From IMG/VR virus record IMGVR_UViG_3300020148_000038: a DNA stretch of 64,000 nucleotides. One strand, 5' to 3'. Each line of letters begins with the position of its first letter. The first letter of the stretch is position 1. Shown here one piece after another: positions 1,414 through 62,956 of the stretch. The position numbers and the translations under genes were made by a program. The stretch comes from an uncultured virus (IMG/VR IMGVR_UViG_3300020148_000038). Its lineage: Duplodnaviria > Heunggongvirae > Uroviricota > Caudoviricetes. Below the pieces are notes generated by a model. The model did no database searches, was not told the origin of the DNA, and was given only the letters and a program-made list of their open reading frames with translations.

Positions 1414-2205
1414 ATGTCAAACACCGTACCACAACAGAAGGTTGTTTCCAAGAATGGAAGGTCGTTCGTCCAAACTTACCATGTCAACCCCAACGCTAAT
1501 GTTTCTTCACAGAAACGCGATCTTTCTGGAATTGCCCCGTCTGTGCCCAACAAAGGGCACAATGAGTCGCATGCAGACCTCGACCATGCATTAGCATTAT
1601 ACAAAAATCGTTCGTATGGTAATGGTCGTGAACAAGACTTTGTTGATGGTTTTAATGCATGTTATCAAAATGGATTTTCCGATCCCGGACAGGCGTTGCG
1701 AGAAGACGGAAACAGAGACGGTAACAGCGCGGGCTATGCAGGCTATTTTACTGGATTCAGGGCCGCGTTGATAGCAAAGCTTGGACAGGAGCAAGGCAAT
1801 TACTTCACCAACGGTGTTTATCTTAAGACGGATGTGTATTCGGGCGGACTTAGCCAAAGCGATAGTGAGCTATACAAAAACAAAGTGCTTCCCTATAACC
1901 CATTCGTGGCGGGAGATGAAGTATTCATTCCTGCTGGAACCCCGTATGAGACTTCAGACCCTTCTAAGCCTGGTATTCAGTATAGCAAACGTGGACAAAG
2001 GGTTAAGCTGTATTCATCCGATCAGGGGTATGCGGATGTTGCTCTAGGAAGGTGCGAAATAGGAATGCCGATGATTACTGCGGTTGGGTCTTCATCATAT
2101 TACAAGGACTACGTAGTGACTCCCGATGTCATCTTGGCGAACGACCATGAATTGCGTCCTGGGGATTTACGAGACGCTGAAGAAACACTCCGTGGTACTA
2201 TCTAA
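1414..2205 (+). CDS. DKNG-leader family protein (variant leader)
   Basis: N-terminus VPQQKVVSKNGRSFVQTYHV; AAGGAG SD. Confidence 0.8.
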   Translation: MSNTVPQQKVVSKNGRSFVQTYHVNPNANVSSQKRDLSGIAPSVPNKGHNESHADLDHALALYKNRSYGNGREQDFVDGFNACYQNGFSDPGQALREDGNRDGNSAGYAGYFTGFRAALIAKLGQEQGNYFTNGVYLKTDVYSGGLSQSDSELYKNKVLPYNPFVAGDEVFIPAGTPYETSDPSKPGIQYSKRGQRVKLYSSDQGYADVALGRCEIGMPMITAVGSSSYYKDYVVTPDVILANDHELRPGDLRDAEETLRGTI

Positions 2206-2226
2206 AAACTAAGGGTTGAATAACGA

Positions 2227-2277
2227 CACCCCTTTTGGGGTGGTAATACGTATTACCTTTTCATGTATTTATACATG
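2227..2277. repeat. cluster of three palindromes (hairpin plus operator-like sites)
   Basis: CACCCC-tttt-GGGGTG; perfect 16-bp GGTAATACGTATTACC at 2242-2257; CATGTA-ttta-TACATG at 2262-2277. Confidence 0.6.
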
Positions 2278-2335
2278 TATTTATCAATGTAGATGTTATC
2301 CTTAACAAATCACTATTCAAAGGAAACGATTTGTT

Positions 2336-4378
2336 ATGCATTTAGCATCAATACCCAAACGTGATGAAGCAGAAAACTCCATCATGCAGACGATAACCAT
2401 TGCGGTTTCGGCAATTCTCATCGCGGCCGGTTTGGTTACTGCTCCTGGGCTTATCAATAACGCCAGGGACAATAACGCCAGAACCGACCTTGCAAACATT
2501 GCATATGCTCAGGAGTTCTACCTGTCAACTACAGGTCACTACTATGACGTTGACAACACGAACACCTTCTTGACAATCGAACAAGAAATGACGGCAAAGA
2601 GTATTGATAAGGAATCTGCTGTCAACAACCTACAATATGAAGCTCAGAACATCGGGGTCAACGGACTCGGAACATCTGTGAATGTTGCGGCGGATGATGT
2701 AGCGGGCGTTTCTTTCACCTTGTCTGGTGATGTCACGGGTCATGCTGTTGAAACCTGTGAGGGTGTTCCGTACTACCTTCTCAAGGATCAGTCGGCATCG
2801 GGTAAGTGGTTCTACCGTGGCTCCGGTTCTGCCGAAACAAGCAGTGACTTCTCAAAGATTTCCTCTGGAATCCCAGCCAAGGTTCTCGTTGCTTGCCCAG
2901 GTTTCGGTGATGGATTCGGTGAAGCACCATCCGATGACGAAAATCCAACAGATCCGGGTAACAACATCTCGGGAGGACAGGCTTTGCCGCTCAACGTCGG
3001 CTCAACCAAATATGACGACGACATCTACTTTGGGATAAGTGGATACTCTGACGATCCGGACGTTTCGGATTTCGGTGGAGGTAGCTTCTGGAGTCCAGAG
3101 CCGGGTTCTCAAATCTCTCTTTCCTATTACGATTCGGCAACCGATTCTTTGATTGAATTCCTTGACCATGCGTTCTCTTCTACTGAATGGGAAGATGCTT
3201 ATGTTCAATATGACGGCTACAGCAACATGCTTTTCGGTAAGTATGAAGGTGAGTATGTCACGCCTTCTAACGATGCTGATTTCCAAAAGATGCATGATAA
3301 CGGTGGAAGTATGACCTTTACTTCATCCGAAACTGGTGCAGAGATAACAGTTCAATGGAGCGCTCCAAATGCAGAATACATGGATCGCGATCCTGCCTTC
3401 CCTCAGCCTCCTGTTTACTTGGAGCATTGGAGCCAGTTGACACAAGCTCAGATGCAAACATTTGACATCTCTGGTGATGGCATGACTGTTATGACGGTTT
3501 ATTCCAGCAGCACATGTGGAGTAGAACTGCCCGCCGATAACGACGAATGTGGTTACATCTGGTTGTCACATGACGGCGGAGAAACATTTAATGCCATTAA
3601 AGATTTGAATGGCGTGGCGGCTAATTACTATCCGGTCGGCGGTCAGGTTAGCGGCGCTAAACTCTGGATCAAGACATTCCAAAGTAACAACGTAAGATAC
3701 TATACGTCTATTGACAGTGGAAACAGTTGGCAACTTGCTGATGTTCCAACCAATATAGGAATGGGTAACACTCCTGAGTTCGCAGTATCTCCTGACGGAA
3801 CAAGAATAATGGTTGGAAGTGGAACAACAATCCGAGTTTCTACTGGCAGTTCCACATATAACGAGGCAACCATTTCTGGTGCGGTAACCAGATTGGTATG
3901 GGGTGCAGACGGCACACTATATGCCACTTCCAACAGTGGTGGATGGCGCAGTACCAATAATGGTGTTTCATGGTCTGCATTGAGTGGCGTGCCAACTACA
4001 GCTAACGGTGTTGCTGTGAATGGCGACGGTTCTGTTGTGGTAGTTTCGGCGGCTGCACAGGGAATCTACCTATCAACAGATCATGGTGAAACCTTCACCA
4101 GGGTTAACGAAGATGGATGGAACATGCGTTCTGTAGCCATCTCTGCCGATGGACAGAAGATTATTTCTGGTGGTAACAGCGCCGTATTGGTATCTACTGA
4201 TCAGGGTGCGACTTGGAAGCGTCAGGAAGCTCTTGGCGGTACTGACTGGACAAGAGTGCAAGTGGCAGATGATTTCTCACGAATCTATGCGGCGAAAACA
4301 TATTCTTATTCATTCTCCGATTCTGGACTATATGTTCACCTCGAAGGTGATGAGGAATGTGTTGACTATTGTGACTAA
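2336..4378 (+). CDS. pilin-like N-terminus fused to a BNR/Asp-box beta-propeller (putative surface adhesin)
   Basis: hydrophobic helix followed by NARDNNARTDLANIAYAQEFY (type IV pilin-like); five S-x-(D/N)-x-G-x-(T/S)-(W/F) Asp-boxes in the C-terminal half. Confidence 0.7.
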   Translation: MHLASIPKRDEAENSIMQTITIAVSAILIAAGLVTAPGLINNARDNNARTDLANIAYAQEFYLSTTGHYYDVDNTNTFLTIEQEMTAKSIDKESAVNNLQYEAQNIGVNGLGTSVNVAADDVAGVSFTLSGDVTGHAVETCEGVPYYLLKDQSASGKWFYRGSGSAETSSDFSKISSGIPAKVLVACPGFGDGFGEAPSDDENPTDPGNNISGGQALPLNVGSTKYDDDIYFGISGYSDDPDVSDFGGGSFWSPEPGSQISLSYYDSATDSLIEFLDHAFSSTEWEDAYVQYDGYSNMLFGKYEGEYVTPSNDADFQKMHDNGGSMTFTSSETGAEITVQWSAPNAEYMDRDPAFPQPPVYLEHWSQLTQAQMQTFDISGDGMTVMTVYSSSTCGVELPADNDECGYIWLSHDGGETFNAIKDLNGVAANYYPVGGQVSGAKLWIKTFQSNNVRYYTSIDSGNSWQLADVPTNIGMGNTPEFAVSPDGTRIMVGSGTTIRVSTGSSTYNEATISGAVTRLVWGADGTLYATSNSGGWRSTNNGVSWSALSGVPTTANGVAVNGDGSVVVVSAAAQGIYLSTDHGETFTRVNEDGWNMRSVAISADGQKIISGGNSAVLVSTDQGATWKRQEALGGTDWTRVQVADDFSRIYAAKTYSYSFSDSGLYVHLEGDEECVDYCD

Positions 4379-6358: not shown

Positions 6359-6361
6359 GTT

Positions 6362-8791: not shown

Positions 8792-9577
8792 ATGATGGTT
8801 GCTGACTCGGCTAAAGAGGTTGTCGTTCCAATTGATGCTGCCGACATATCAATTGGTGACATCATCAGATCTTCTCACTATAGACAGCTTCTTGGTCATT
8901 ACGGCGAAGGTAAAGTGACGGAGATTACAAATGAAGGTATCGTTGTCAATGACATTATTTTGAGTGGTTCGAAAGGGTGGACTTTTTACAAAGTTACAGT
9001 TCCAGAAACAAACATGATAGCGGAGCCGGTATATACCAATAACAAAACCGTTACCGTCCAAAGGGGTGTAGATGAGATTGAGTCTATGGAGTCGATGGAC
9101 GAAATTCGTAAACATTGTAAAGACCTGACAGTAACACTTCTTTTGTCTCTACTCAGAGATGAAAGTTGGGATGTTTTGGCAAAAGCCATCAAGCGTATCG
9201 GTGGAGCTAGAAACCTCGACATATTGTTCTCTAAATACACCGATTTGCAAGGTGTTCCAACAAGCGTGCTTAACCATAATTACATCAATCTGTTTACGTC
9301 GGATGCAAAAGAGAATATGCAAAGGATGTATTACTCCGGATTTGCTGGACTCAAAGGAGAAGAGCGGATTGAATACTGCGCCTCTTTCCTCCTTGCTTTA
9401 TTCCATAACAAGTTGAGCAAAAGAAGAATCGACCAAATAACTATTATCAGAAAAACCTTGGGCGTAGATAAATACTTGAAGTTGTGTCAACTCGACATCC
9501 CGTTTAAAGACATTCTCTTCGTGGCTGAAAATCGTCCTGATGTCGATATAGATGTTGTTGCAACAATGAATGAGTAA
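8792..9577 (+). CDS. C-terminal IDxD-module family protein
   Basis: ends LDIPFKDILFVAENRPDVDIDVVATMNE. Confidence 0.75.
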   Translation: MMVADSAKEVVVPIDAADISIGDIIRSSHYRQLLGHYGEGKVTEITNEGIVVNDIILSGSKGWTFYKVTVPETNMIAEPVYTNNKTVTVQRGVDEIESMESMDEIRKHCKDLTVTLLLSLLRDESWDVLAKAIKRIGGARNLDILFSKYTDLQGVPTSVLNHNYINLFTSDAKENMQRMYYSGFAGLKGEERIEYCASFLLALFHNKLSKRRIDQITIIRKTLGVDKYLKLCQLDIPFKDILFVAENRPDVDIDVVATMNE

Positions 9578-11070: not shown

Positions 11071-11613
11071 TCAGTTGACATAGATTGTGCTGCCATCGGA
11101 TGTCATGTCGATTTCGTTTTCTTTCCTTGCTGCATCTGCTAGGTCTTTACCGACTTGTCCGAGTTCTTCTCTATCCCAGAATCCAGTTCCATGTCCGTTG
11201 ACTGTATACCAGTAGTCGTGTCCGAAGTTCACAAGTCCGTATCCCGGCTTATCAAGAGCTTCTTTAACAAGGTCTTCATTTTCCGAAACGAATGCAAGAA
11301 CTCTGGATTCTAGGTCATCACGAATGTCATCAGTGATGTCGCTAATTCCGAAAATCCCATCGAGGGGTTCTTCGTCGTCTGTAATAGAGGTGAACAGAGC
11401 ACATTCAATTACCCCATCAACCATTTCATCAACTTCATCGCGTGAAAGGTCGCCTGGGTATCTCTTGCCATCTACTCCATATAGAGAGTTATCTACACGA
11501 GATGGGATGGCTGCTGTAGTGGGGAGTTTGGTTTCATCTACTGAGTCCTTGACATATCGAGTTACCAATACGCCGTTCTTATCAACACGTTTCTCTGGGT
11601 GTAAATTGCTCAT
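11071..11613 (-). CDS. DKNG-leader family protein with GHDYWYTVNGHGTGFWDR domain
   Basis: N-terminus LHPEKRVDKNGVLVTRYVK; promoter TGTC(11641-11638)-N12-TAATAT-N6-ATG. Confidence 0.85.
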   Translation of the reverse strand: MSNLHPEKRVDKNGVLVTRYVKDSVDETKLPTTAAIPSRVDNSLYGVDGKRYPGDLSRDEVDEMVDGVIECALFTSITDDEEPLDGIFGISDITDDIRDDLESRVLAFVSENEDLVKEALDKPGYGLVNFGHDYWYTVNGHGTGFWDREELGQVGKDLADAARKENEIDMTSDGSTIYVN

Positions 11614-11645: not shown

Positions 11646-12281
11646 TCAGTTTGCTTGGGCGCTGAATGTACGCCATCTGTTGTAAATGTTTTCGTAGTCT
11701 TCTTGCGCCTCAATGAGTTCTTGACGTTCTTCTGTACAGGATTCCCAAGCTTTAGCCATTTGCTTGAGCTTTCTATGGTTGTTTGGAATGTCATCGGATG
11801 ATGTGTAGCGTTCATTTCCCGCGAAATACTCATTGCCATCAGAGAATTCTGCTACAGACAAAACCGTTCCGTTGGTTGAGTCGCCTGCTCTAGTGAAGTA
11901 GCCTTCTCCATTCATTCCAACATACACATCCAGTCCATATCGAACTTCGATGTCTCTTTGGATTCCTTCTTTATGCTTTAATGCGTCATGGACATAGGGC
12001 GACATGGAATCAGCGATAACGGAGGCGGTCGTGGTCGCAACAGTGAAGTATTCCGAATTTTCTTTGAGGTAGTCTTCGAGCCAAACCTTCTCTTCTAGCA
12101 AGAGTCCGTAGTTATCGGCGGCATCTTCCCAGTAACGATCTAATTGAGGCAGTCTGATAGATGAATGTTGAAGGGCTACCCCGTCAACCCTTTTAGACTC
12201 GGTTGTGGCATCGTTCTTGACGTGCCTGATAACAACTTTACCGTTCTTATCAACGCGCTGTTCGGGGTGTAAATTACTCAT
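11646..12281 (-). CDS. DKNG-leader family protein
   Basis: LHPEQRVDKNGKVVIRHVK; promoter TGTC(12326-12323)-N12-TAATAT; GAAAGAGG SD. Confidence 0.85.
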   Translation of the reverse strand: MSNLHPEQRVDKNGKVVIRHVKNDATTESKRVDGVALQHSSIRLPQLDRYWEDAADNYGLLLEEKVWLEDYLKENSEYFTVATTTASVIADSMSPYVHDALKHKEGIQRDIEVRYGLDVYVGMNGEGYFTRAGDSTNGTVLSVAEFSDGNEYFAGNERYTSSDDIPNNHRKLKQMAKAWESCTEERQELIEAQEDYENIYNRWRTFSAQAN

Positions 12282-15124: not shown

Positions 15125-15745
15125 ATGATTGATTCGCTACCGAAGGAGTTGGTCATGTCTGCCATTTCATTACCACTAACGCTTAAGCCTGTTGATAATA
15201 TATCATCCGAAGAAAGAGCTACTATCCTTGAATCATTGGGCGATAACTATTCGACCATTGGAACTGCATCCAATCCAGAAGAATGCTTGGAATACTTCGA
15301 AGGAAAGCATGGTGCATGGGTCATCTTCTCCCAAGAGCAACCTGTCGGATTAACAGGTCTTCACCGTTCCTCTTCTCGGGGTGAAGATTACATTCAGACT
15401 TCAACTTACATCTTCAATAAGAGCAGAAAGATGGGTTACAACAACTTCTTAAAGAGGGTCATGGCGCAAGCTTTCATTCATACCCCTCCATTTAAGATGT
15501 ATTGCGTGATTCGAGACTGGAACGAAAACGCCAGAAATTCTGTAGAGTCTGCCTTTCCAGATGTCAAGCCGATATTGGAGACGAGAACAGAAGCTCAAAA
15601 GCTGATAGACCCTGTTGAGCATCAATGGTTCTATGATTTCTCTAAGACTCACAGAAGGGATATTCTGTCGATGGAGAAGCCGATATACAACACCATTACA
15701 ATGTGGTTGAACAATCAGCGTAAACAGCTTTTCAAAGCGGCCTAA
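15125..15745 (+). CDS. GNAT (RimJ/RimL-like) acetyltransferase-fold protein
   Basis: PVGLTGL...STYIFNKSRKMGYN (motif A-like) and IRDWNENARNSV. Confidence 0.55.
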   Translation: MIDSLPKELVMSAISLPLTLKPVDNISSEERATILESLGDNYSTIGTASNPEECLEYFEGKHGAWVIFSQEQPVGLTGLHRSSSRGEDYIQTSTYIFNKSRKMGYNNFLKRVMAQAFIHTPPFKMYCVIRDWNENARNSVESAFPDVKPILETRTEAQKLIDPVEHQWFYDFSKTHRRDILSMEKPIYNTITMWLNNQRKQLFKAA

Positions 15746-16445
15746 AATTTGATGATGCTAATTCGGTGATGGCGATAATGTTAGCGATTGTTTCTGTTCT
15801 GATGAGTCTTACTAAATCAACTGACTCACCCAACTCATAGCCCCGGTCATTCTCTACTAGGTGTGCCCATTCACGCATATTATCTTCGGATAGATTGAAA
15901 CCATCATCTCGAAGATGCTGTATCTTCTTATACTGATTCTCTGTCGCATACATAGAATCGTTAATGTAATATTCTCTCCATATCTTCAAGAATGACTGGC
16001 GGGCGTAATCATCGATAAAAGGTGTTTCGAGAGTTTTTAGTTCTTCGGTGAGAAGTCCTGCCGCCCATGAACTTCCGTCTTCGGATTGAGTGCTACCCGT
16101 GATGCTGATAGACCACGCTTTATCAAGTTCTTTCAGATCGGTTGTCGTTACATCGTAAATGGGTTTAAGAACGACGTTGACATTGAGATGGCGTCCATCC
16201 TTGGTGATTCCTAATGAAGAAGTGGGTAGATGATATTCTCCGTCTTTATAGTCGATTCCACCTTCATCGAAAATCTCTGCAAGAAGCTTTTCGGTCATAT
16301 CGAATTCTTCGTTCCATTCGTCCTTGAAGGACGCCCTGGGTTCGAGTCCAACCACTCGGGAGTTGGTGATGTCTTCTGTCTTCTTGTAGACGTAGGTATG
16401 CTTTCCGTTTTTATCCACGATTGGCGTTTTCTGTAAGTTGGACAT
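15732..16445 (-). CDS. DKNG-leader family protein
   Basis: KTPIVDKNGKHTYVYKK; promoter TGAC-N12-TATACT-N6-ATG. Confidence 0.85.
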   Translation of the reverse strand: MSNLQKTPIVDKNGKHTYVYKKTEDITNSRVVGLEPRASFKDEWNEEFDMTEKLLAEIFDEGGIDYKDGEYHLPTSSLGITKDGRHLNVNVVLKPIYDVTTTDLKELDKAWSISITGSTQSEDGSSWAAGLLTEELKTLETPFIDDYARQSFLKIWREYYINDSMYATENQYKKIQHLRDDGFNLSEDNMREWAHLVENDRGYELGESVDLVRLIRTETIANIIAITELASSNFRPL

Positions 16446-16451
16446 ATAAAG

Positions 16452-22449: not shown

Positions 22450-22497
22450 CTGGTGTCACACCGGTCTTATAGTATATAGATGAAAGGTAGTCAAACT

Positions 22498-34282: not shown

Positions 34283-34311
34283 ATTATACGTTTATGCTGT
34301 CTGGATGTCAA
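34283..34311 (-). promoter_or_regulatory. consensus SigA-type leaderless promoter
   Basis: TTGACA-N17-TATAAT, 6 nt before ATG 34276. Confidence 0.85.
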
Positions 34312-47096: not shown

Positions 47097-47903
47097 ATGA
47101 TGAATCTTGTGGTGCGAGAAATAGATCCAAATTTAGAAGACCTGAAGGATGAGTCTGTTCATACCCTTATCAATCTATCCATATATCAAGAGCGAGAATA
47201 CTCGTGGTGGGGTCGGTTACCAACTTTTGACTTCTTTAAGAAATGGTTAACCATCAAATCAGAAACAGAGTTCATACCGCTTCTGAGCGAGCCGCCTTTT
47301 GATTCCACTAAAGAATATTCTGATAATCATAGATTGAGTGTCAATACGCACAGTAATTGTACGTATGTTCTTGACAACATGAAATGGGATATGGATATCT
47401 TCCATGCCATTTTCCCATCAGTAGCCCCGAGCGTTCCCGAAAGAATTGACTTGCTTAACGAAGCACTTGAGCTTCGTGCGAGCTTGAACAAACCATTGGA
47501 TATCAATGAATTAGCGCTTCGTGCCGGTTTCTATGTTCCAGAGTTGTTGAAAAGAGGCGTGAAGGTTCGTGAGTTGCTTTATGTAATGGACAACAACATG
47601 AAAATTCACGATATCGATTATTTGACTTATGATGAGAAGTCTATAGCGGCGAGAGCGGAAATAATAAACGATTTGAGGAATTTCGCAACCGATGATTCAG
47701 CTTACGGTTGGTACATGATCATAAATCGCGCCAAGGGCGCGCAATCTAGAAGATTCTATAGCATTAACAAACAAAAACTCTCGGAACTGGTTTCGCGCTA
47801 TACGCCGAAACAGGTAGAGCCATACCTGCTGAGCAACATCAAGATGCAAGATATCATCGTAGCTTTGGGCTCGGGTATTGATATCAACCTTTTAACAAAT
47901 TAA
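47097..47903 (+). CDS. C-terminal IDxD-module family protein
   Basis: ends YLLSNIKMQDIIVALGSGIDINLLTN. Confidence 0.8.
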   Translation: MMNLVVREIDPNLEDLKDESVHTLINLSIYQEREYSWWGRLPTFDFFKKWLTIKSETEFIPLLSEPPFDSTKEYSDNHRLSVNTHSNCTYVLDNMKWDMDIFHAIFPSVAPSVPERIDLLNEALELRASLNKPLDINELALRAGFYVPELLKRGVKVRELLYVMDNNMKIHDIDYLTYDEKSIAARAEIINDLRNFATDDSAYGWYMIINRAKGAQSRRFYSINKQKLSELVSRYTPKQVEPYLLSNIKMQDIIVALGSGIDINLLTN

Positions 47904-48375
47904 CGGCTATATCTACATCAACATTGTTGGCTTCAAACGACCTGATTGTATCAATGTCATAGATACCATTGGCGTACCATTTGATTAGCTCAGGGAACTG
48001 CTCCATGTTGAGGTATCTTTCCAACCATACGTGGGTTTCCTTTTTCTGGAACTCAATCCGCATTCTTTCACGCAGTTTGGACATTGGCTCGACATATTGC
48101 ATCCAAACCATTATTTCGGACCAAATCATACCTTCTTTTTCTACGCTTTGAGTTTTGAGAACATCTATCATCGACTCAGAATCTTCTTGAGAGAATGTTG
48201 TTCCTTCTAAAAGTCTGTTGAGGGATTTGTCTGCTGATTTGTTGTTGGTAAGTTCAGGGCGAACCCAATACAGCAGAAAATATTTGAAGCGGTTTTCTTC
48301 GCACCCCATCGCCCCGAAGTTGTGTCGAGGGTATGTCTGCATCAAATGGTTGTAGAACTCGCTGTACGAAACCAT
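47884..48375 (-). CDS. C-terminal IDxD-module family protein
   Basis: ends WYANGIYDIDTIRSFEANNVDVDIAVNLL. Confidence 0.8.
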   Translation of the reverse strand: MVSYSEFYNHLMQTYPRHNFGAMGCEENRFKYFLLYWVRPELTNNKSADKSLNRLLEGTTFSQEDSESMIDVLKTQSVEKEGMIWSEIMVWMQYVEPMSKLRERMRIEFQKKETHVWLERYLNMEQFPELIKWYANGIYDIDTIRSFEANNVDVDIAVNLLKG

Positions 48376-48414: not shown

Positions 48415-49062
48415 CTAATCGTCTTCTGGGTCTGGGATGACGCTTCTAATGAGTTGCCCTATCGAGCCGCCATAGTCGTAATCGTTTACGAGGTCGAGTA
48501 GTTTGGTTTCTGACTCTACGCGGTCGCCCATGTATTCAATCGTTTCTGAGTTTGGTCTGCCTTCGTATTCAACGTAGAAACTGATGGAAATTTGTTCTTC
48601 AGATCCTTCTTCGAATTCCCCGCCGTACTTTTGAGCAAGCGCTTCACCTATTTCGTAACGGTAATTCTCGATTTGCTCGTTAACTCTTTCTTCGTATTCG
48701 TCGTCGGTTTCGTCTTTCCTTTGTTCCCCAGCGAGGTCTTCTCTGAATGCGGTCAACATGATGTCAACACCGTAGGCGATTCCTTCGTTGGAGACTTCAG
48801 CCCAATGCGCTCGGGAGTAACTGTCGTCGCCATCTAATCTTTCATCGATGTAATCTGAAGCGATTCTAACTTCTTCAAGTGTCATGTTCTGGGGAATTCT
48901 GATGTAGTCTGATGGGTAATTGGTCGGCACATCATTCCATTTATACTGTGAGGGCACCCCGCTGATAACACTATCTCTCTCCTTGGAGGATTGTAGAAGC
49001 TCTTTCCTCCATACATGGGTGAGCTTACCGTTTTTATCGATGATTGGAGTTCTAACGTTCAT
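48415..49062 (-). CDS. DKNG-leader family protein, highly acidic
   Basis: MNVRTPIIDKNGKLTHVWRK; TGTC(49090-49087)-N12-CATAAT-N6-ATG. Confidence 0.85.
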   Translation of the reverse strand: MNVRTPIIDKNGKLTHVWRKELLQSSKERDSVISGVPSQYKWNDVPTNYPSDYIRIPQNMTLEEVRIASDYIDERLDGDDSYSRAHWAEVSNEGIAYGVDIMLTAFREDLAGEQRKDETDDEYEERVNEQIENYRYEIGEALAQKYGGEFEEGSEEQISISFYVEYEGRPNSETIEYMGDRVESETKLLDLVNDYDYGGSIGQLIRSVIPDPEDD

Positions 49063-51672: not shown

Positions 51673-52347
51673 TTAGTCCATTGAGCGATTCACGAACTTA
51701 ACTATAAAGAAATCGCTTCTTCCGTGAGTTCTTCTGGACTCGTTCAGTTCTTTTATTTGACTATCGATGTGTTCAAGAGCTACCTTCTTGTCATCGGTGA
51801 GAGAATAAACTTGACTTGCAGATATCTTTCCTGTGGATAGGTCGTTAGCCATATTGAGAAGAATATTTAGTCGTTCATCAATGGATTCGCGCAATGGACG
51901 CCTTCCATCTTTTCCGTCCCATATCCTTTCGAACAGTTCATCAAATGGGGTGGGGATTCCTGCATCATAAGATCTGACGTGTGCTCTCAGCTTGCATATT
52001 TCAGCCGCGTCTTGTTCCATGAGAACTTTGAAGTCGGGAGATTTCTCCATGTTCCTACGGTATATCCTTTCGAATCTTTTAAGGTTTCTGTAGTTCCGAG
52101 GTTTTCTCCCCATCGTGCTATACCATTCTCGTCCGTGGGCGGCATCGAAAATGATTCTCTTGATTGCCTGTTCTTTGTCTTCTTGGGTTATTTTGAGACA
52201 AAGTTCTTCAAAGGTTGCCGCGCTGGTGGCTGGAACGATGCTCCCAACGTTTCGTGAGAAAACGTTGGGAAGTGCAATTTCCTTGACATGTCTGGTAACA
52301 TGTTTGCCATTTTTGTCTACCCTGACTTGAGGTTTGAGCACTCCCAT
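51673..52347 (-). CDS. DKNG-leader family protein
   Basis: LKPQVRVDKNGKHVTRHVK; CGAC-N12-TACTCT-N6-ATG. Confidence 0.85.
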   Translation of the reverse strand: MGVLKPQVRVDKNGKHVTRHVKEIALPNVFSRNVGSIVPATSAATFEELCLKITQEDKEQAIKRIIFDAAHGREWYSTMGRKPRNYRNLKRFERIYRRNMEKSPDFKVLMEQDAAEICKLRAHVRSYDAGIPTPFDELFERIWDGKDGRRPLRESIDERLNILLNMANDLSTGKISASQVYSLTDDKKVALEHIDSQIKELNESRRTHGRSDFFIVKFVNRSMD

Positions 52348-52451: not shown

Positions 52452-53339
52452 GTGAGGTTGTCCAGTCTGATTCCGAAGAGAATCATAGATAAAAACGGTA
52501 AACAGAACACTGTTTATATTAAGCCTGAAATTGATGCACCGACCAGACATGTTCCCATCCCAATCAATAGCAATCCAGATTTTCATAGAAGCATATCCAT
52601 CACGGGCTGGCCGACTAGGGCGTTAGCTGGAGTGGATTCAGAAGGTAAATGGGATGGACGCAAACTAGAGCATGAAAGAGTCTTGATAGGTGGATATGAA
52701 AGTTGGCATATAGCTCCGGAAGGACGCTCGGGTGCATATTGTTATCAGTGCCATTCGTTTTATCCTAAAGATACCCACGACTTCTTCAATGCTGAGTGCG
52801 AGGTGTGTGGGTTTACATCTATGGGCAAACCGCTTTCGGGAATAAGAGAAGAGTTTTTGGGCTATTTCGACACATCTACGGTGAAAGACGATAGATGGTT
52901 TCATATTACTACCAACCCGGATTGGGGCAAGGATATCAATGACCCCGAGTATATGGATAAGCCTTTTGTTCATGTAGGGACTGAAGAGGCTGCCTATGAA
53001 AGAATGAGAGATATCATCAAAGATCTTAGAGGCGCATCGAAACCAGATTTTTATTTATACGAAGTGTCGGTGAAGGAGTCCGCGCCTGTTCACCCCGCTA
53101 TCATCTCTGACTACGACATCTCTGCTCCGAAAACTATAAACCAAGTGAAAGAGGAAATCGCGAACGACATCAGTGAAGACGGAACTTCTTACGATGATCG
53201 TGCCGAGTTCTTCGAGATGTATGAATTGAACGGGGTAACAGCCTACATGAATGAATATGAATCCGTAGGTTCCGTTTCGTTGATAGCTCACCCAGATTCT
53301 CTAGAAATTATTGGGGTGAAGGCAATAAATCTAGATTAG
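52452..53339 (+). CDS. DKNG leader + Zn ribbon + ADP-ribosyltransferase-like domain (paralog of 28440..29255)
   Basis: IPKRIIDKNGKQNTVYIK; CYQC...CEVC; WFHITT, VHVGTEEAAYER, AYMNEYESVGSVSL; TGTC(52424)-N12-TAATCT-N6-GTG. Confidence 0.7.
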   Translation: MRLSSLIPKRIIDKNGKQNTVYIKPEIDAPTRHVPIPINSNPDFHRSISITGWPTRALAGVDSEGKWDGRKLEHERVLIGGYESWHIAPEGRSGAYCYQCHSFYPKDTHDFFNAECEVCGFTSMGKPLSGIREEFLGYFDTSTVKDDRWFHITTNPDWGKDINDPEYMDKPFVHVGTEEAAYERMRDIIKDLRGASKPDFYLYEVSVKESAPVHPAIISDYDISAPKTINQVKEEIANDISEDGTSYDDRAEFFEMYELNGVTAYMNEYESVGSVSLIAHPDSLEIIGVKAINLD

Positions 53340-54690: not shown

Positions 54691-55161
54691 TTAGTCTTCG
54701 AGCATCCGCATTTTCGTTTCCCACAACTCGATTGCTTCGGAAACGCCGGGAGTTGGGTCTTCTTGATTTAGTTCTTTCTCTTCATCAAGAACTTCACACA
54801 TAAGGTCGTGAGAAGCTTTCATGCTGTTTTGAGAACTGATGATTCTGTTCCATATATCGAATAGCTCTTCCACTTTGTTGGCCTTGTTCACATACAGGTC
54901 GTAGCTTGGTTTACCGTAAAGCCTATCTGTCATGTCCTGTATGTTCTTGATATCTTCGATGGTGAGATTGTAAAGATCCTTGACATCGCCATACTGGTCG
55001 TCGCTGAATGATGGAATGTCACGCATAGCAAACGGTCCTGGTGCGCGGGGAGGTATGGCTTGACGAACACCACCCACCTTGGCAACATCATTTCTTTTGT
55101 GAACGGTGGTAGCCCTTCCGTTCTTATCAATGATTCGTTCTGGGTGCGTATTTGCTGACAT
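54691..55161 (-). CDS. DKNG-leader family protein
   Basis: THPERIIDKNGRATTVHKR; TTTC-N12-TATGAT-N6-ATG. Confidence 0.85.
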   Translation of the reverse strand: MSANTHPERIIDKNGRATTVHKRNDVAKVGGVRQAIPPRAPGPFAMRDIPSFSDDQYGDVKDLYNLTIEDIKNIQDMTDRLYGKPSYDLYVNKANKVEELFDIWNRIISSQNSMKASHDLMCEVLDEEKELNQEDPTPGVSEAIELWETKMRMLED

Positions 55162-55590: not shown

Positions 55591-56052
55591 TTAGCCCGTG
55601 TAGAACGAAACCAAAGTGTCTACATCAAGACTGCTCTTACTGAGTTTTTCAAGTGCTTCCACGTCGCCTCGGGGAATATGTTTGATGAGATACAATATTT
55701 CGTTTTCGTTCCTGTATCCCCTTGCTTCCTTAATGGAGTCAATTGCCATGATGACGCCTATTAAGTTCAGAGCATATTTATGAACTGCCGCCCAATGTAG
55801 AACGTCACGAGATGACTCACCAAACGGTTCTAATGTATCTTTACACCAATAATAAGCCTGCTCGGTAAAGAAGCGGTCACCACCTAACGCGACGAGCGAG
55901 GCGAATGAGTGCGGAAACCTCTTGGGTAGCTTGAGTCCATTTGCATATAGGTAAACCATGTGTACATAAACACGGTCGTCAAAGGTTATGTTGTGTCTTA
56001 TCGCCCATTTTCTGACTTTCCGCTTATAGAAAGACTCAAAAACATAACTCAT
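55591..56052 (-). CDS. C-terminal IDxD-module family protein
   Basis: ends ALEKLSKSSLDVDTLVSFY; TTGATT-N18-TATAAT-N6-ATG. Confidence 0.7.
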   Translation of the reverse strand: MSYVFESFYKRKVRKWAIRHNITFDDRVYVHMVYLYANGLKLPKRFPHSFASLVALGGDRFFTEQAYYWCKDTLEPFGESSRDVLHWAAVHKYALNLIGVIMAIDSIKEARGYRNENEILYLIKHIPRGDVEALEKLSKSSLDVDTLVSFYTG

Positions 56053-57575: not shown

Positions 57576-58145
57576 ATGTCAGAAAAAGTGCCCAAGAAAA
57601 TTGTTGATAAGAATGGCAAACACACAACGGTTTATGTCAAATCTCAGTCTTCGGGCAAAATAGACCGAATCGTTCCTCAAAACGCCCCACCTATCGTTGG
57701 ATACGAAACTATAGATATCAGGGATACCTATGAGGAACGGGCAACTAATTTAGTCAATACATTATTCTCGGCCGCTCGACATGCCAGCGATAAATCAAAT
57801 GACGACGATTTATCTCGGCATCTTTTTGATATCGGGCATGACGTTGTTGCTCTCATGTCAGAAATGCATCTGAAAATTCAAAGACAACGTGAAGAGATAG
57901 AGTTGCTTCAACAAGGTAGACTTATGAACTATTCACAATTCGTGGACTCTCACTCCAATTACTTCTTCGGAACGAAGTTGGAAAGGTTCAAGGACGCTTC
58001 CGGTAAGGAACATCTTGTGATTCCAAACGGGGTTGCCATAGGAAGTGTCTCTATGGACGATGCTGATTTAACGAAATTCAGGAAAGCTGTTTCTGAGTAT
58101 AACTCGATATTAGCCGCGCTGGAATCTTATATTTCAAAGGAATAA
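57576..58145 (+). CDS. DKNG-leader family protein
   Basis: VPKKIVDKNGKHTTVYVK; TACATT-N6-ATG with a degenerate CCTC box. Confidence 0.85.
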   Translation: MSEKVPKKIVDKNGKHTTVYVKSQSSGKIDRIVPQNAPPIVGYETIDIRDTYEERATNLVNTLFSAARHASDKSNDDDLSRHLFDIGHDVVALMSEMHLKIQRQREEIELLQQGRLMNYSQFVDSHSNYFFGTKLERFKDASGKEHLVIPNGVAIGSVSMDDADLTKFRKAVSEYNSILAALESYISKE

Positions 58146-58847
58146 ACTACGCGCCATTTCTGGGTTGATGTTGTTCTCGATTGCGTTTTTGATGTCGTCT
58201 ATTCTGAATATTCCCGCCCGAATATAATCTAGTGCAGGAAGTCCATCTCGCAACATCTCAAAGATGTAGGAAAACGCTATGTCGCTGTTATTCAAAGAGC
58301 CGTTGACAACTTCTGTGGTGATATTGGTTGGCTCTTCGGCTTCGCGGTGAAGAACGTCGTTCATAATCATATGTGCTTCTGATTTATAGATTGACATCGG
58401 AAGCACTGATACAAATTCTCCTTCAACCTCTAATGAGAAATGCGGCTCTTGATCCGAATGCATAGCCTTCATAACAAAAAGTGGTGCCAGAGGGTTGATT
58501 GTGTTGGTGGTGAGTTTTCGTATGATTGTTCGTGCAACGCCATCAACATCTGCCCGGATTGATTCCGGAATGTAGCTTCTGTCCAAAGAGGATATGTAAT
58601 CTTTGACGGTATTGAAATCGAATTGCAGGTGAATCAGTTCCTCTGTCACTTCTCGCATAGTTTCTTTGGTTCGGGTGCTTGAGAACTGTTCCCATCTCTC
58701 GGTAACTATATCCCTGGCTCGCGGGTCGATGACCCGAAAGGTTTCTTTTATCGGCGTATCAATATCGAATTCATATGGGTTTTCCCAGTTGTAGTGTTCA
58801 AAGATTCCGCTTTTAAAGAATTGCTCTGATGTTTCGTTTCTTTTCAA
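58134..58847 (-). CDS. C-terminal IDxD-module family protein
   Basis: ends YIRAGIFRIDDIKNAIENNINPEMARSL. Confidence 0.8.
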   Translation of the reverse strand: MKRNETSEQFFKSGIFEHYNWENPYEFDIDTPIKETFRVIDPRARDIVTERWEQFSSTRTKETMREVTEELIHLQFDFNTVKDYISSLDRSYIPESIRADVDGVARTIIRKLTTNTINPLAPLFVMKAMHSDQEPHFSLEVEGEFVSVLPMSIYKSEAHMIMNDVLHREAEEPTNITTEVVNGSLNNSDIAFSYIFEMLRDGLPALDYIRAGIFRIDDIKNAIENNINPEMARSLFL

Positions 58848-59015: not shown

Positions 59016-59996
59016 CTATAACGGTTGCGTCTCTTCGTATAACCATTCGGGTATCTGACGTTCAGGGAATCTGACCATTGTCGAGTTACCTATTGCGTAG
59101 ACTGATTCTTTGCTTGCCTTCTCTATGAATCCTAGGTTCTCCTGCCTGAAGAAATAATTCCCTAAAACGTCTTTGCCGTTTCCGTAGTAAAACATATTGT
59201 CTTCAAATCCGTACTCTGTATAGAACTTTCTTAACCTACTGTAATGAGACTTTCTGTTTTCTTCGTAATGGATTGAGCTTTCCCTAATGCTTCCATCTCC
59301 TGCTTCACTTGGAACTAATGAAAGGACATAATGATTTTCGTCAGCGTGTTTGGTGATGATCGACATCACATGCGAACCTATTCCAATTCCTCGCATCTGT
59401 GCGTCTATGTATATGTCGTTGATGGCGCAGAACTTTCTTTCTTCGTCGGCGCTTCTATCCGATAACTTGATATAGATGACCCCGTTGTATATTTCTTTGA
59501 TGAAAGCGGTCATCTCTTCTAACGTTGCGAAAGAAGGCACTATGGTTTTGTTTATTTTCTTCGCTTGTTCGAGAAGATATGTTCGGTCTTTGGGTAATCT
59601 AACCAAACCCGTCTCTCTTCCATCTCGCGAAGATACTGTGGCGTTAATCCATCCGCCAGGTTCTCCAGCGCTATGCAGTCTGACCGTTTCAAGGTCTATA
59701 TCATGTAAACGATCTATATCGCTCCAGTCATAGGCTTTATTTCTGGATACAATCTCTCGCATTATCCGTGGTATAGACAATCCTTCTGGACATTCACTCA
59801 ATCCACATCCGACTACGTTGTGTTTTCTACTTTTGCAGATTTTGGGTTCAAGCCTGTTCTGAATAAGTGCGTTCTTGTCGTGTAACAGCCCGCTGTTGTC
59901 AACGTTTACAACCCTATTATTGGTTTTTCGGGAGATGTTCTTCCATACATGAGTGAACTTACCGTTCTTGTCTATGATGGGAACCCGAGTGGACAT
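59016..59996 (-). CDS. DKNG leader + GNAT-like domain
   Basis: RVPIIDKNGKFTHVWKN; INDIYIDAQMRGIGIGS and RLRKFYTEYGF. Confidence 0.8.
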   Translation of the reverse strand: MSTRVPIIDKNGKFTHVWKNISRKTNNRVVNVDNSGLLHDKNALIQNRLEPKICKSRKHNVVGCGLSECPEGLSIPRIMREIVSRNKAYDWSDIDRLHDIDLETVRLHSAGEPGGWINATVSSRDGRETGLVRLPKDRTYLLEQAKKINKTIVPSFATLEEMTAFIKEIYNGVIYIKLSDRSADEERKFCAINDIYIDAQMRGIGIGSHVMSIITKHADENHYVLSLVPSEAGDGSIRESSIHYEENRKSHYSRLRKFYTEYGFEDNMFYYGNGKDVLGNYFFRQENLGFIEKASKESVYAIGNSTMVRFPERQIPEWLYEETQPL

Positions 59997-59998: not shown

Positions 59999-60619
59999 TT
60001 ACCCTCCGACGAGGAATTCGTAATCTTTGTTGTTTCCAATGAACTCTCTGAATTCAGCGGTTTGCTTCTTAACGCTATCAAACATCTTGGTTACGCGATG
60101 CATTTCGTCATAGTCGCTCATATCGAAGCCTACTTCGCTGGCTAGCTCTTGTGGCGTCCGACAGTTGTCGGATATGGAGGCGTCGAGAATCAAGGAGTGA
60201 AGAACGTCTTCGACAGTTGGAACCGTATCAATAGCAAGTCCAGTGCTGTATGGAATCTGAATCTCTTTGTTGTCGTCATTCGTAAGGGTGATGATAAACT
60301 TGTTTTGTAATATGTTCTTACCAACATTATCTGTATAACGCTGTCCTATGTAATAAGCCGAACCGGTCACCCCGAGCCTTTTGGATACTTTTTCGATCCT
60401 AAAAGTTTCTCCGTCTGAGTATGAACCTTTAGGGAGCATCGGAGTTGAACTCTCTGGTTGTAAATCAGCGATATTGGTGACGGTTCTATTCTCTTGGTGC
60501 CCGGTATTTGGAACGGCCGACACCATCTTTTTCACTCCGACTTTTGGCTCGGCGCGTTTATGTACAGTGGTCTTACGTCCGTTCTTGTCTATGATTTGGG
60601 TGGGTACGAGGTTTGACAT
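59999..60619 (-). CDS. DKNG-leader family protein
   Basis: LVPTQIIDKNGRKTTVHKR; GGTC-N12-TATAGT; AAGGAG SD; PTVEDVLHSLILDA domain. Confidence 0.85.
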   Translation of the reverse strand: MSNLVPTQIIDKNGRKTTVHKRAEPKVGVKKMVSAVPNTGHQENRTVTNIADLQPESSTPMLPKGSYSDGETFRIEKVSKRLGVTGSAYYIGQRYTDNVGKNILQNKFIITLTNDDNKEIQIPYSTGLAIDTVPTVEDVLHSLILDASISDNCRTPQELASEVGFDMSDYDEMHRVTKMFDSVKKQTAEFREFIGNNKDYEFLVGG

Positions 60620-60684
60620 TGGGATGCTCCTTAACAATGTTACTATACAACGAGGGTGTGACCTCATTCGAATAGAGTTTCTAA

Positions 60685-61575: not shown

Positions 61576-61622
61576 TATGGGTTGACGTTAGCAAAGATTC
61601 GTGATGAATGGGATAACTTTGA

Positions 61623-62078
61623 CTATTTTAGTCCAAAAATATATTCGCCCGATTCTGGGTCATCTCGTATTTGAAGAGTAAAGTATTCATCTCCCCTTAA
61701 TATCGCTGCTGCGTATCTGTGGTTTCCGTCGATTAAAGGGTGAAGGTTAAACAGGTGTTTCTCTACACTGAATATGGGAAGGTGCCAATCGTCTTCGCAC
61801 TGGACGCCATTGTGATAAAACCACGCCACCCTATTGATGTGGTATTGCCTAACTTCATTAGAATATCCTTCTAGATCAACTCCACAATATTCCTTGGATG
61901 ATGCCTCAGCAAGCGGAACAGACCTAACCTCTTCTTCAGTGAGAACATCACCGCCCCAAGTCGGGTAAATAAAAGCGCTAGGAATGATAGACTTCAGTAA
62001 AGAAACCCGAACCTTGTAAATGTTGTGAGATAACCTAATGGCATCTTCAGTGGTTGGTTTATCTGTTCGTGTTGACAT
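61623..62078 (-). CDS. ParB/sulfiredoxin N-terminal-like protein
   Basis: LIDGNHRYAAAILRG motif; TTGATT-N17-TATTAT-N7-ATG. Confidence 0.65.
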   Translation of the reverse strand: MSTRTDKPTTEDAIRLSHNIYKVRVSLLKSIIPSAFIYPTWGGDVLTEEEVRSVPLAEASSKEYCGVDLEGYSNEVRQYHINRVAWFYHNGVQCEDDWHLPIFSVEKHLFNLHPLIDGNHRYAAAILRGDEYFTLQIRDDPESGEYIFGLK

Positions 62079-62110
62079 CGCTGGGATAATAAAACATCTC
62101 GGTCTAAAAA

Positions 62111-62956
62111 TCAACCAGAGATAATCTCTAGCACGTCGTTATCGACTTTAGCCCATTCCCTCAACCTGAATGGATTCTTTTCGTGAGCGGCTACATCAAC
62201 AATTGCATCAAAGTCCAGCCTGAAGAGGCGAACCATAATCAACCATATCCACAGGGGAGGGAAGTTGTGGTCTTGGCGCGCCCTGTTTCTGATGTAGTAG
62301 AAGACCCAGAGGATGAATTGTCTGTTTCCGATTCTGCGATACAGTCGGACATTCGCTGCGTTGATGTCTTCCCATAGTTCACGCCCTATATAGTGTTGCC
62401 GCGAGATGATTTCGGCGGCTTCTCCAACCGTAATGCGCTCGTTATAGAAATGGGTTTTCATAGAAAGCGTTGAAAGCAACAACGGGGTAAGTCTTCCCTC
62501 TTGAGAGAGAATTTTGATTAAGTCGTCTTTGTTACAAGAGATCAACCTATGTGGTTTTTTAACCGAGCTATTTCCATATTTACTATGACCCAGATGTTGA
62601 AGTCCTGGACTATAAATCGTATCTTTGTATTTCAGCCACATTCCGACAAAGAAAGCAGCCAAATCCAAATCCTCTGCGTCATTGATGCTGGTTAGTCGTG
62701 AAATTTGATACGGCGAAGACTCCCTGAATTCGGATTTTTCAACCTCTGTCAAATCGGAAGCTTTAAGAAATCTTTCAAATTGGGTTTGAGTGGGGAGTGA
62801 CCAATAACTAAAATTTGAAAATGGTATGCGGCATTGTTCGATATCTCGGTAACGCCCGTCTTGGGAGGGGTCAACCCATTCCAAGAATTTAGATATTGGC
62901 TCGATGCTGTCTTCTAGTGATTTATCTATAACTAGGCTTCTTTTTGGAAAGCTCAT
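62111..62956 (-). CDS. hypothetical protein, weak C-terminal IDxD module
   Basis: ends REWAKVDNDVLEIISG. Confidence 0.65.
   Translation of the reverse strand: MSFPKRSLVIDKSLEDSIEPISKFLEWVDPSQDGRYRDIEQCRIPFSNFSYWSLPTQTQFERFLKASDLTEVEKSEFRESSPYQISRLTSINDAEDLDLAAFFVGMWLKYKDTIYSPGLQHLGHSKYGNSSVKKPHRLISCNKDDLIKILSQEGRLTPLLLSTLSMKTHFYNERITVGEAAEIISRQHYIGRELWEDINAANVRLYRRIGNRQFILWVFYYIRNRARQDHNFPPLWIWLIMVRLFRLDFDAIVDVAAHEKNPFRLREWAKVDNDVLEIISG

Follow-up and report, generated by a model that had tools for sequence, protein, structure and literature searches.

The 64-kb stretch of DNA analyzed here (the window; ~44% GC), from IMG/VR record IMGVR_UViG_3300020148_000038 of an uncultured virus, carries two sets of genes whose products share a terminal region: an N-terminal leader with the core DKNG in one set and a C-terminal tail with the motif IDxD in the other. 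In a first-pass annotation, these were understood as the two arms of a bipartite protein-addressing programme, each served by its own class of promoter. Our analysis leads to a different picture. The window holds one conserved promoter-plus-leader cassette plus one local family of paralogues, not a bipartite programme, and our results suggest that the leader genes are a co-switched set of cargo proteins. Open reading frames (ORFs) were called by a greedy longest-ORF rule rather than by a gene finder (92 ORFs, plus six overlapping ones that were added), and every promoter described below is a sequence prediction. The DNA covered amounts to 64 kb of a 495-kb contig and 203 kb of a 654-kb contig that holds a second IMG/VR record, here called G001. 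The tagged genes account for nearly half of the window's ORFs (45 of ~97, 46%; the first-pass estimate was roughly 40–45%) and, as had been described, lie in alternating blocks on both strands.

The DKNG leader is a basic peptide of ~25 residues with the consensus M-x4-P-x2-[IV][IV]-DKNGK-x-TTVHK. Tags were sought with a regular expression first and then with profiles over all stop-to-stop ORFs of at least 50 amino acids (aa). The leader profile matched 21 window ORFs, all at the N-terminus and all at E ≤ 7.6e-11; the next match had E = 2.2. In an all-against-all blastp comparison, the DKNG proteins resemble each other mostly over their first 20–50 residues. The proteins encoded at 28440 and 52452 are 34% identical over 293 residues, and eight further pairs align over 110–228 residues at 22–31% identity, so some of the bodies are distant paralogues. 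The DKNG codons vary synonymously (GAT 11 and GAC 5, AAG 11 and AAA 5, four Gly codons), which argues that selection acts on the peptide. The first 26 residues have a net charge of +1 to +5 with 0–3 histidines, and the next 34 are 65–79% polar. In an AlphaFold2 model of the 28440 protein, built from a six-sequence alignment (mean predicted local distance difference test score, pLDDT, 76.3), the leader is predicted to form a hairpin with strands at residues 6–12 and 18–24, the linker at 26–63 falls below a pLDDT of 50, and the body is well folded. The leader has the character of an address or docking peptide carried by diverse cargo, and this part of the first-pass proposal is supported.

No known family accounts for the leader. 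None of the leader regions has a Pfam match at E ≤ 0.01, searches of the PDB with sequence profiles of leader and tail yielded chance-level rows only (E ≥ 0.15), and the ESM Atlas gave no usable match when a DKNG body and the leader were used as queries. Literature searches with literal leader strings returned unrelated papers only, with no description of the motif under those strings. A resemblance to an AbrB-like half-domain had no Pfam support and was dropped.

The leader is coupled to a distinctive promoter. The pattern TG[TA]C-N12-[TC]AnnnT occurs within 70 nucleotides (nt) upstream of 12/21 DKNG genes, 1/23 IDxD genes, and 6/52 other genes, an enrichment of DKNG genes over the rest (12/21 vs 7/75) with a Fisher p = 1.1e-5; the sole IDxD match overlaps that gene's own TTGACA. 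At two more DKNG genes the box position reads AGTC or GGTC, and three lack a promoter of their own, each lying directly after another DKNG gene, so that the box or a one-base variant serves 14 of the 18 DKNG transcription units. In its strict form, TGTC-N12-TAnnnT, the box has 13 sites on the two strands of the whole window against a shuffle mean of 8.95, and nine of these are within the 45 nt upstream of DKNG starts, against an expectation of 0.07. Outside DKNG genes, strict sites are no more frequent than chance predicts, so the box is all but private to leader genes. Its sequence is (G/A)TGTC(A/G), and the −10 element, TAnnnT, often lies exactly 6 nt before the ATG. The columns of the 12-nt spacer are not conserved, which together with the synonymous variation of the DKNG codons indicates that the box sites are not recent copies of one another. 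By these predictions the DKNG genes form a promoter class of their own, without a −35 element at the normal spacing.

Many genes of the window are predicted to be leaderless. A TAnnnT-like hexamer ends 5–8 nt (mostly exactly 6) before the start of 42 of 96 window genes, compared with a chance rate of 12.6%; by class, this holds for 15/21 DKNG, 8/23 IDxD, and 19/52 other genes. With a −10 element at this distance of 6 nt, transcription would begin at the A of the ATG itself, as for leaderless mRNAs. Among the genes with such a −10 element, a −35-like hexamer accompanies 6/8 IDxD and 6/19 untagged genes (p = 0.087), and 2/15 DKNG genes. Two side observations concern the box. One clear outsider, the untagged gene 640–1326 on the minus strand, has TGTC-N12-TAAGTT 6 nt before its ATG and is divergent from the DKNG gene at 1414. 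In the 51-nt intergenic region 16446–16496, the leaderless box promoters of the divergent DKNG genes 16445 (minus) and 16497 (plus) stand back to back and share the palindrome GGTGTCACC, which reads as TGTC or TGAC depending on the strand.

The same coupling recurs well beyond the window. An exact scan of IMG/VR for the back-translated leader motif matched one record, G001 (202,737 bp, 51% GC), and two more leader patterns found only G001 or nothing there. G001 has no nucleotide similarity to the window; it contains 19 leader ORFs (domain E ≤ 1e-3), and it encodes a full-length relative of the window gene 17491..18510 product (34% identity over 344 aa). The strict box stands upstream of 11 of these 19 genes, and G001 has 29 strict sites in total, compared with a mean of 19.6 in shuffles. 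A scan of metagenome contigs for the leader motif gave 108 loci with GC contents from 0.42 to 0.67 and no blastn match to the window or G001. The box is present in 54 of 112 unique upstream regions of metagenome leader genes, and the spacer of the strict box is 12 nt long in 53 of these regions, with each other length from 6 to 21 nt found in 0–5. The −10 element ends 6 nt before the ATG in 12 cases and 17–39 nt before it in 41, most of the latter with a Shine–Dalgarno (SD)-like stretch. That the leader is retained for leaderless translation was considered and dropped: 10/11 box-bearing genes of G001 and 41/53 metagenome genes have their −10 element 17–39 nt before the ATG, and these genes mostly have an SD-like stretch and still keep the peptide. 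A word-based search of 5.8 billion proteins placed leader proteins on contigs of 494,976, 654,127, and 805,269 bp and on smaller ones. Window proteins map to the first of these, and two leader proteins, P0004 and P0014, lie on it outside the window. A 35- to 42-nt piece of leader-coding DNA at 42691–42732 recurs at seven further places on three X1-assembly contigs, four of them without mismatch, which indicates more leader genes elsewhere on the element.

Some collections gave no relatives. Megablast of 24 kb of the window against 50,697 phage and 72,556 plasmid records found no match, nor did tblastn against the 50,697 phage records with a DKNG protein and an IDxD protein as queries, and a near-length protein search with one DKNG protein returned only the query itself. 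In GTDB, a looser leader pattern occurs at 120 loci at least, and among the matches listed all profile matches are internal chance ones with no N-terminal leader, which is weak evidence of absence.

The IDxD tail is of another kind. It was found in 24 window ORFs, always C-terminal, at E values from 2e-16 to 0.013 (next match, E = 0.69), and the proteins that bear it share only their last ~45 residues. The tail is a folded C-terminal domain of 35–65 residues: an AlphaFold2 model of the last 65 residues of the 47884–48375 product, with the 24 tails aligned, has four helices (pLDDT 86.8). The mean charge of the last 38 residues is −3.2. A Foldseek search with this fold returned a single row, the UBA domain of Dsk2 (E 7.1, TM 0.40/0.51), and a wide VIA search reached at best Z 4.6, with unrelated helical chains. 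Against 1.84 billion representatives, the tail profile gave 24 matches at E ≤ 1e-3. Sixteen correspond by length to window IDxD genes, and each of the seven sequences compared is the window's own protein; the other eight are long, repetitive, multi-stretch proteins with unrelated Pfam families and were rejected as relatives. In G001, with its 19 leader genes, there is no IDxD tail (best E = 0.36). Thus, judged by sequence, the IDxD set is a lineage-restricted, locally expanded paralogue family, seen only in this window.

These results bear directly on the proposed pairing of the two tags. It had been claimed that no protein carries both, and we found none among the 21 + 24 ORFs, the best cross-matches being E = 2.6 for a DKNG ORF with the tail profile and E = 7 for an IDxD ORF with the leader profile. 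Under independence 5.2 double-tagged ORFs would be expected among ~97, with P(0) = 0.001, a weak null since two distinct families would not overlap anyway. The six promoters that had been named for IDxD genes are all present in the sequence as written, and there is a seventh at 40421–40449 (TTGACT-N17-TAACAT). Equally, the assignment of DKNG genes to a TG(T/A)C-N12 class is borne out by the 12 of 21 with the box, the two with AGTC or GGTC, and only four units without. The association of tag with promoter class, tabulated in the window, stands for the DKNG box class and fails for an IDxD-specific class: a canonical −35 element (≤1 mismatch) accompanies 5/23 IDxD vs 8/52 untagged genes (p = 0.52). 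A generic sigma-70-like scan of 24–44 kb gave 31 sites vs 28.4 expected, so that only top-scoring, correctly placed sites count. The remaining IDxD genes lie in same-strand runs with overlapping or abutting ends, at 19793–22449, 32179–36293, and 37908–40861. A complex prediction for the IDxD tail with the DKNG leader scored 0.00, which is uninformative either way. The view of IDxD as the second arm of an addressing programme is not supported: the tail is a folded domain, its family is confined to the window, and G001 has 19 DKNG genes without it.

What the leader precedes is varied. The proteins encoded at 28440 and 52452 form, with four metagenome relatives, a family that combines a four-Cys zinc ribbon with a domain resembling the ADP-ribosyltransferase (ART) and RES folds. 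Residues 132–271 of the 28440 model match ParT (Z 6.9, root-mean-square deviation 3.6, 114 residues aligned), Xre-RES (Z 6.8), and MbcT (Z 6.8), with exotoxin A, diphtheria toxin, pertussis S1, Tpt1, and tankyrases among the later fold matches. Nearly all top Foldseek rows for this body are ART-fold proteins, at modest E values of 0.011 or worse. Invariant in the six sequences are the four Cys, H167, R177, Y244, E249, and S253, with R177-E249-S253 in the order R-E-S. By predicted fold and residue order, these bodies resemble the NAD-using ART toxins of the RES / ParT / MbcT type, from which they differ in Z scores below 8, in having no Pfam match, in the extra four-Cys zinc ribbon, and in that no antitoxin was identified. 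Elsewhere the leader is fused to other domains, in G001 to an ArdC-N domain and a polyA/CCA polymerase domain, with fusions on other contigs as well; precomputed Pfam assignments place Tox-PLDMTX on one leader protein and PARP on another. Matches to phrog_1915 and phrog_4273 in the window and to phrog_15500 and phrog_2319 in G001 cover the bodies only, not the leader, so the leader and linker seem to have been added to proteins that occur elsewhere without them.

The reading that we favor, with a confidence somewhat short of even, is that the window contains a conserved promoter-plus-leader cassette, whose cargo would be co-switched, docked, and delivered, interleaved with the separate, local IDxD family. 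An element-encoded factor would read the box at about −30 while the host sigma factor still reads the −10 element; it could be an activator acting like MotA/AsiA at T4 middle promoters, or a dedicated sigma factor. The leader genes would switch on together once this factor is made, and it is reasonable to infer that their expression needs such an element-made factor and hence comes later than immediate-early. The hairpin would dock each protein on one common receptor, most likely the assembling particle, as the T4 capsid-targeting sequence does, or else another transfer machine, and the varied effector enzymes would travel with the DNA into the next cell. The IDxD genes would use ordinary sigma-70-type promoters, as untagged genes do, or be transcribed as operon members; their acidic, helical domain probably binds one common partner, and nothing ties the set to the leader system. 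More tentatively, the ~110-bp cassette of TGTC box, 12-nt spacer, −10 element, and 25-codon hairpin leader may be a portable "switch on and send" module of an undescribed clade of uncultivated elements of 0.5–0.8 Mb, in which one factor and one receptor would turn captured genes into delivered effectors, twenty or more per genome, with ART-fold, ArdC-like, and toxin domains among them.

It is useful to compare this arrangement with known systems. T4 internal proteins are described in PMC3012670 as a diverse set that counters host defenses or modifies the host, with only the capsid-targeting sequence in common. Here, too, a short N-terminal peptide is common to otherwise unrelated proteins, and by analogy the cargo, with its predicted ART-fold and anti-restriction-type members, is of similar character. 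The differences are several. The two peptides have no sequence likeness; the leader is predicted to be a beta-hairpin on a ~40-residue linker; an L/I-x-E-type cleavage motif does not follow the leader; and packaging is a prediction here, with no scaffold, protease, or capsid genes recognized. The propeptides of ejection proteins in giant phages (SPN3US, phiKZ-like) differ again, in that they have no single shared motif behind a dedicated promoter; megablast and two tblastn queries against the 50,697 phage records also turned up no relative of those phages. In polymorphic toxins (LXG, MuF), a conserved N-terminal trafficking module precedes swappable C-terminal enzymatic or toxin domains, a layout like that of the leader proteins; the leader, however, is much shorter, lacks a Pfam trafficking domain (LXG, MuF, PAAR), and comes with a promoter for each gene. 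For the promoter, the nearest parallel is the T4 middle class, where, according to PMC2988021, the MotA box lies 12 +/− 1 bp from the −10 element and replaces the −35 element. Both classes keep a host-type −10 element and replace the −35 element by a box near −30, at exactly 12 nt here. They differ in sequence, TGTC(A/G) here compared with the MotA box (a/t)(a/t)(a/t)TGCTTtA, and in range, since the class described here serves almost only leader genes and not a general middle regulon.

Several findings weigh against this reading. No capsid, portal, terminase, or prohead protease was recognized with Pfam and PHROG in the window or in the 202.7 kb of G001, and with virion genes unrecognized in both, the viral nature of the element is not established. 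The VirB4-like AAA_10 protein and the T2SSE/T2SSF genes of G001 would suit a conjugative or pilus route instead. Neither a sigma factor nor a MotA/AsiA-like family is among the Pfam matches of 92 window and 165 G001 ORFs, and a conserved T4- or phiKZ-type protease site was not found after the leader, where there is only a loose R-h-x-x-h-P. Four of the 18 DKNG units (36988, 52347, 55161, and 57576) lack the box; the first uses a sigma-70-like promoter and the other three have a −10 element only. A strict box is missing from about half of the leader genes of the metagenome set. Where host promoters often do without a −35 element, the box could be the operator of a repressor instead of an activator site. 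Finally, the leader and tail profiles were trained on the genes that they scored and are partly circular, so that their weight lies in the gap to the next match.

The alternatives fit parts of this evidence. The bipartite programme would make IDxD proteins early cytoplasmic effectors produced by the host RNA polymerase and DKNG proteins late cargo for the next cell, with the two tags as complementary sorting signals. Such a division would agree with the lack of double-tagged ORFs among the 21 + 24, with the alternation of both classes in blocks along the window, and with the −35-like hexamer at 6/8 IDxD vs 2/15 DKNG genes that have a leaderless −10 element (p = 0.006). It is unlikely all the same, given a record with 19 leader genes and no tail, a tail without relatives outside the window that is a folded domain rather than a short signal, and canonical promoters that serve untagged genes as well (5/23 vs 8/52, p = 0.52). 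A role for the leader as a working part of each protein in the producing cell carries a lower probability than the favored reading. The hairpin might then bind a common host target, such as nucleic acid, the ribosome, or RNA polymerase; other candidates are a chaperone and a protease, for the latter of which it would be a timed degradation tag. The promoter would only ensure coexpression. The basic character of the leader (net charge +1 to +5 over 26 residues, with 0–3 histidines) would suit this, as would the lack of recognized delivery machinery nearby and of a cleavage motif after the leader. However, a short peptide on a disordered linker before unrelated folded bodies is the layout typical of docking peptides, and cargo domains of the kinds seen here (ArdC-N, ART-fold, PARP, and toxin) target a new host in known systems, which by analogy may hold here. 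On the whole, we regard work of the hairpin inside the producing cell as nearly as likely as delivery.

It might also be argued that the ~110-bp promoter-plus-leader segment is mainly a recombination or gene-conversion cassette that spreads before captured genes, its peptide having no common function. Unrelated bodies do follow the cassette, and the leader DNA of 42691–42732 repeated on three X1-assembly contigs offers homology for exchange. Yet the spacer, the untranslated region, and the synonymous sites are not conserved, whereas the box, the 12-nt spacing, and the peptide persist on contigs whose GC contents range from 0.42 to 0.67. This pattern points to selection on function rather than recent copying, and a mainly recombinational cassette seems to us quite improbable.

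A cassette that switches on and addresses its genes would be relevant in several ways. If the leader is an address, it would be a new and easily recognized signal that would list, from sequence, the proteins that are sent into, or first used in, a new host. It would thereby reveal a repertoire otherwise invisible among the ORFans of very large uncultivated elements, and about a fifth of the window's genes would gain a role. With its rigid spacing, the TGTC-N12 promoter would add a second natural example of a replaced −35 contact. Even without delivery, the link between one type of promoter and one N-terminal peptide makes a distinct regulatory unit in need of an explanation, and this coupling spans more than 130 genes on contigs with GC contents from 42% to 67%. 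The IDxD tail, in turn, is to be regarded as a feature of a local family, not as a general sorting signal.

The leader genes themselves are spread across the window. Eight have the TGTC or TGAC box in a leaderless position: 11071..11613 on the minus strand (180 aa; E 1.1e-13; 11620–11641, TGTC-N12-TAATAT, 6 nt to the ATG), whose body resembles phrog_1915; 15732..16445 (minus, 237 aa; E 3.8e-16; 16452–16473, TGAC-N12-TATACT); 16497..17315 (plus, 272 aa, a VRKDG variant; E 2.8e-14; 16469–16490, TGTC-N12-TATTCT); 17491..18510 (minus, 339 aa; E 1.6e-16; 18517–18538, TGTC-N12-TAGCAT); 24071..24577 (minus, 168 aa; E 2.9e-14; 24584–24605, TGAC-N12-TAAGCT); 28440..29255 (plus, 271 aa, with the zinc ribbon and ART-fold body; E 1e-13; 28412–28433, TGTC-N12-TATGAT); 48415..49062 (minus, 215 aa; E 7.9e-12; 49069–49090, TGTC-N12-CATAAT); and 52452..53339 (plus, 295 aa, GTG start, the 28440 paralogue; E 5.6e-15; 52424–52445, TGTC-N12-TAATCT). 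Just downstream of the last, gene 53388–53792 has a weak DUF7832 match. The untranslated leader is 21 nt long and has an SD sequence at 1414..2205 (plus, 263 aa, with the degenerate leader VVSKNGR; E 2.4e-11; box 1371–1392, TGTC-N12-TATGAT), 23 nt long at 11646..12281 (minus, 211 aa; E 6e-15; box 12305–12326, TGTC-N12-TAATAT), and 17 nt long with an SD sequence at 37071..37925 (plus, 284 aa, a VRKDG variant; E 7.6e-11; box 37032–37053, TGTC-N12-TATACT). Gene 22480..23058 (plus, 186–192 aa depending on a start at 22480 or 22498; E 4.6e-14) has its box at 22454–22475 (TGTC-N12-TAGTAT).

Variant boxes precede 42048..42755 (minus, 235 aa; E 3.1e-17; 42762–42783, AGTC-N12-TAATAT, leaderless) and 59999..60619 (minus, 206 aa; E 1.8e-16; 60642–60663, GGTC-N12-TATAGT, with a 22-nt untranslated leader and SD sequence), the latter with a body similar to phrog_4273. 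Each of these two is followed by a gene without its own box: 41624..42055 (minus, 143 aa; E 3e-13) overlaps the end of 42048–42755, and 59016..59996 (minus, 326 aa; E 1.8e-12; weak GNAT matches at E 5e-4) begins 2 nt after 59999–60619. Likewise, 23059..23766 (plus, 235 aa; E 2.3e-16) starts 0 nt after 22480..23058 and is probably cotranscribed with it. Among the units that lack the box, the DKNG-like gene 36734..36988 (minus, 84 aa, INKNGK; E 2e-11) has the sigma-70-like TAGACA-N17-TAGAAT at 36995–37023 and is leaderless. The others have a −10 element 6 nt before the ATG and a different tetramer at the box position: TACTCT and CGAC at 51673..52347 (minus, 224 aa; E 9e-13), TATGAT and TTTC at 54691..55161 (minus, 156 aa; E 2.6e-14), and TACATT and CCTC at 57576..58145 (plus, 189 aa; E 8.6e-15).

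Seven IDxD genes have the promoters discussed above. On the plus strand, 25273..25923 (216 aa; E 2.4e-12) has TTGACA-N17-TATGAT at 25223–25251, matching 11 of 12 positions, with an SD leader. On the minus strand, leaderless promoters precede 26925..27803 (292 aa; E 2.7e-13; 27810–27838, TTGACA-N17-TAACAT), 33746..34276 (176 aa, weak tail; E 4e-4; 34283–34311, TTGACA-N17-TATAAT, 12 of 12), 39443..40414 (323 aa; E 3.5e-7; 40421–40449, TTGACT-N17-TAACAT), and 55591..56052 (153 aa, weak tail; E 9.2e-5; 56059–56088, TTGATT-N18-TATAAT), and the distance to the ATG is 7 nt for 38440..39423 (327 aa from the ATG at 39423; E 2.5e-7; 39431–39459, TTGCAA-N17-TAATGT) and 44331..45119 (262 aa; E 1.9e-9; 45127–45155, TTGACA-N17-TAGAAT). 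Behind the isocitrate dehydrogenase gene 18543–19793, which is the first gene of their operon, lie three plus-strand IDxD genes: 19793..20443 (216 aa; E 1.8e-11), which starts 1 nt from its end, 20436..21404 (322 aa; E 2.7e-14), whose 8-nt overlaps with its neighbors place it in the operon, and 21397..22449 (350 aa; E 7.1e-12).

The minus-strand run that includes 33746..34276 also contains 32179..33045 (up to 288 aa, with an uncertain start and a low-complexity N-terminus; E 4e-12), 32796..33965 (up to 389 aa, start uncertain; E 2.2e-11), 34308..35513 (401 aa; E 2e-16), 35506..36111 (201 aa; E 2.2e-13), and the mini-gene 36114..36293, which consists of the tail only (59 aa; E 1.4e-4, or 1.3e-9 in the search of the 1.84 billion representatives) and was missing from the first-pass list. 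In the next run lie 37908..38447 (179 aa; E 3.3e-6) and 40424..40861 (145 aa with the start as in P0038; E 4e-8), both on the minus strand. The other members are 8792..9577 (plus, 261 aa; E 2.4e-10), 30268..30870 (plus, 200 aa, a weak member in a strand-skewed region; E 3.2e-4), 46376..46807 (minus, 143 aa; E 2e-12), 47097..47903 (plus, 268 aa; E 7.9e-10), 47884..48375 (minus, 163 aa; E 2e-16), whose last 65 aa were modeled, 58134..58847 (minus, 237 aa, an NINPE variant; E 9.5e-14), and the weakest, 62111..62956 (minus, 281 aa; E 0.013).

Of the window ORFs, 85% have no recognized family. Pfam recognizes NadR, PnuC, LytR_cpsA_psr, Fic, isocitrate dehydrogenase, two J-domain proteins, two DNA methylases, DUF6941, and one BNR/sortilin protein in the window, and the PHROGs search contributes little. 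The auxiliary genes at 5282–7129, 9809–11002, 13432–14625, 18543–19793, 45553–46386, and 56081–56914 belong to the families NadR + PnuC, LytR_cpsA_psr, Fic, isocitrate dehydrogenase, and N4/N6 and Dam-like DNA methylases. G001 is listed in IMG/VR as a provirus, 96% complete, and was, we infer, cut out of the 654-kb contig. It encodes DnaE, DnaB, a clamp loader, GyrB, NAD-dependent ligase, class Ib ribonucleotide reductase, ThyX, dUTPase, and RtcB, together with two T2SSE genes, one T2SSF gene, and the VirB4-like AAA_10 protein; clear secretion genes were recognized neither there, in 202.7 kb, nor in the 64-kb window. Its DnaE is nearest to that of a Streptomyces phage (37% identity over 80% of the query), and it has a type I-E CRISPR-Cas set with Cas3, Cse1, Cas5, and a Cas6e-like protein (L010:14277 to L011:1757). 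G001 probably holds tRNA genes, to judge from tRNA-like ORF artefacts in L001 at ~64.6–65.9 kb rather than from a tRNA scan; the 64-kb window has none. The leaderless architecture, LytR_cpsA_psr, and the class Ib reductase would fit a Gram-positive, perhaps actinobacterial, host.

The window DNA is present in three DNA runs labeled ant metagenome, whose contigs represent the same DNA with no informative structural differences. Strand asymmetry is extreme at 29400–35500, where the plus strand has a GC skew of up to +0.66 and an AT skew of −0.55 at normal GC content. The skew affects genes of both strands, those on the plus strand being rich in G and T and those on the minus strand rich in A and C, with low-complexity basic N-termini. 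Either strand-specific pressure (C>T plus A>G) or a foreign insert would fit this pattern. Two J-domain proteins, at 40861–41571 and 45152–45553, sit amid the tagged genes, and another is encoded in G001 at 101698–102468, adjoining an S26 signal-peptidase-like gene. Finally, the BNR/sortilin beta-propeller protein at 2336–4378 has a hydrophobic, pilin-like N-terminal segment and is one of the few proteins common to the window and G001 (81954–83537), with 46% identity over the first 183 residues.

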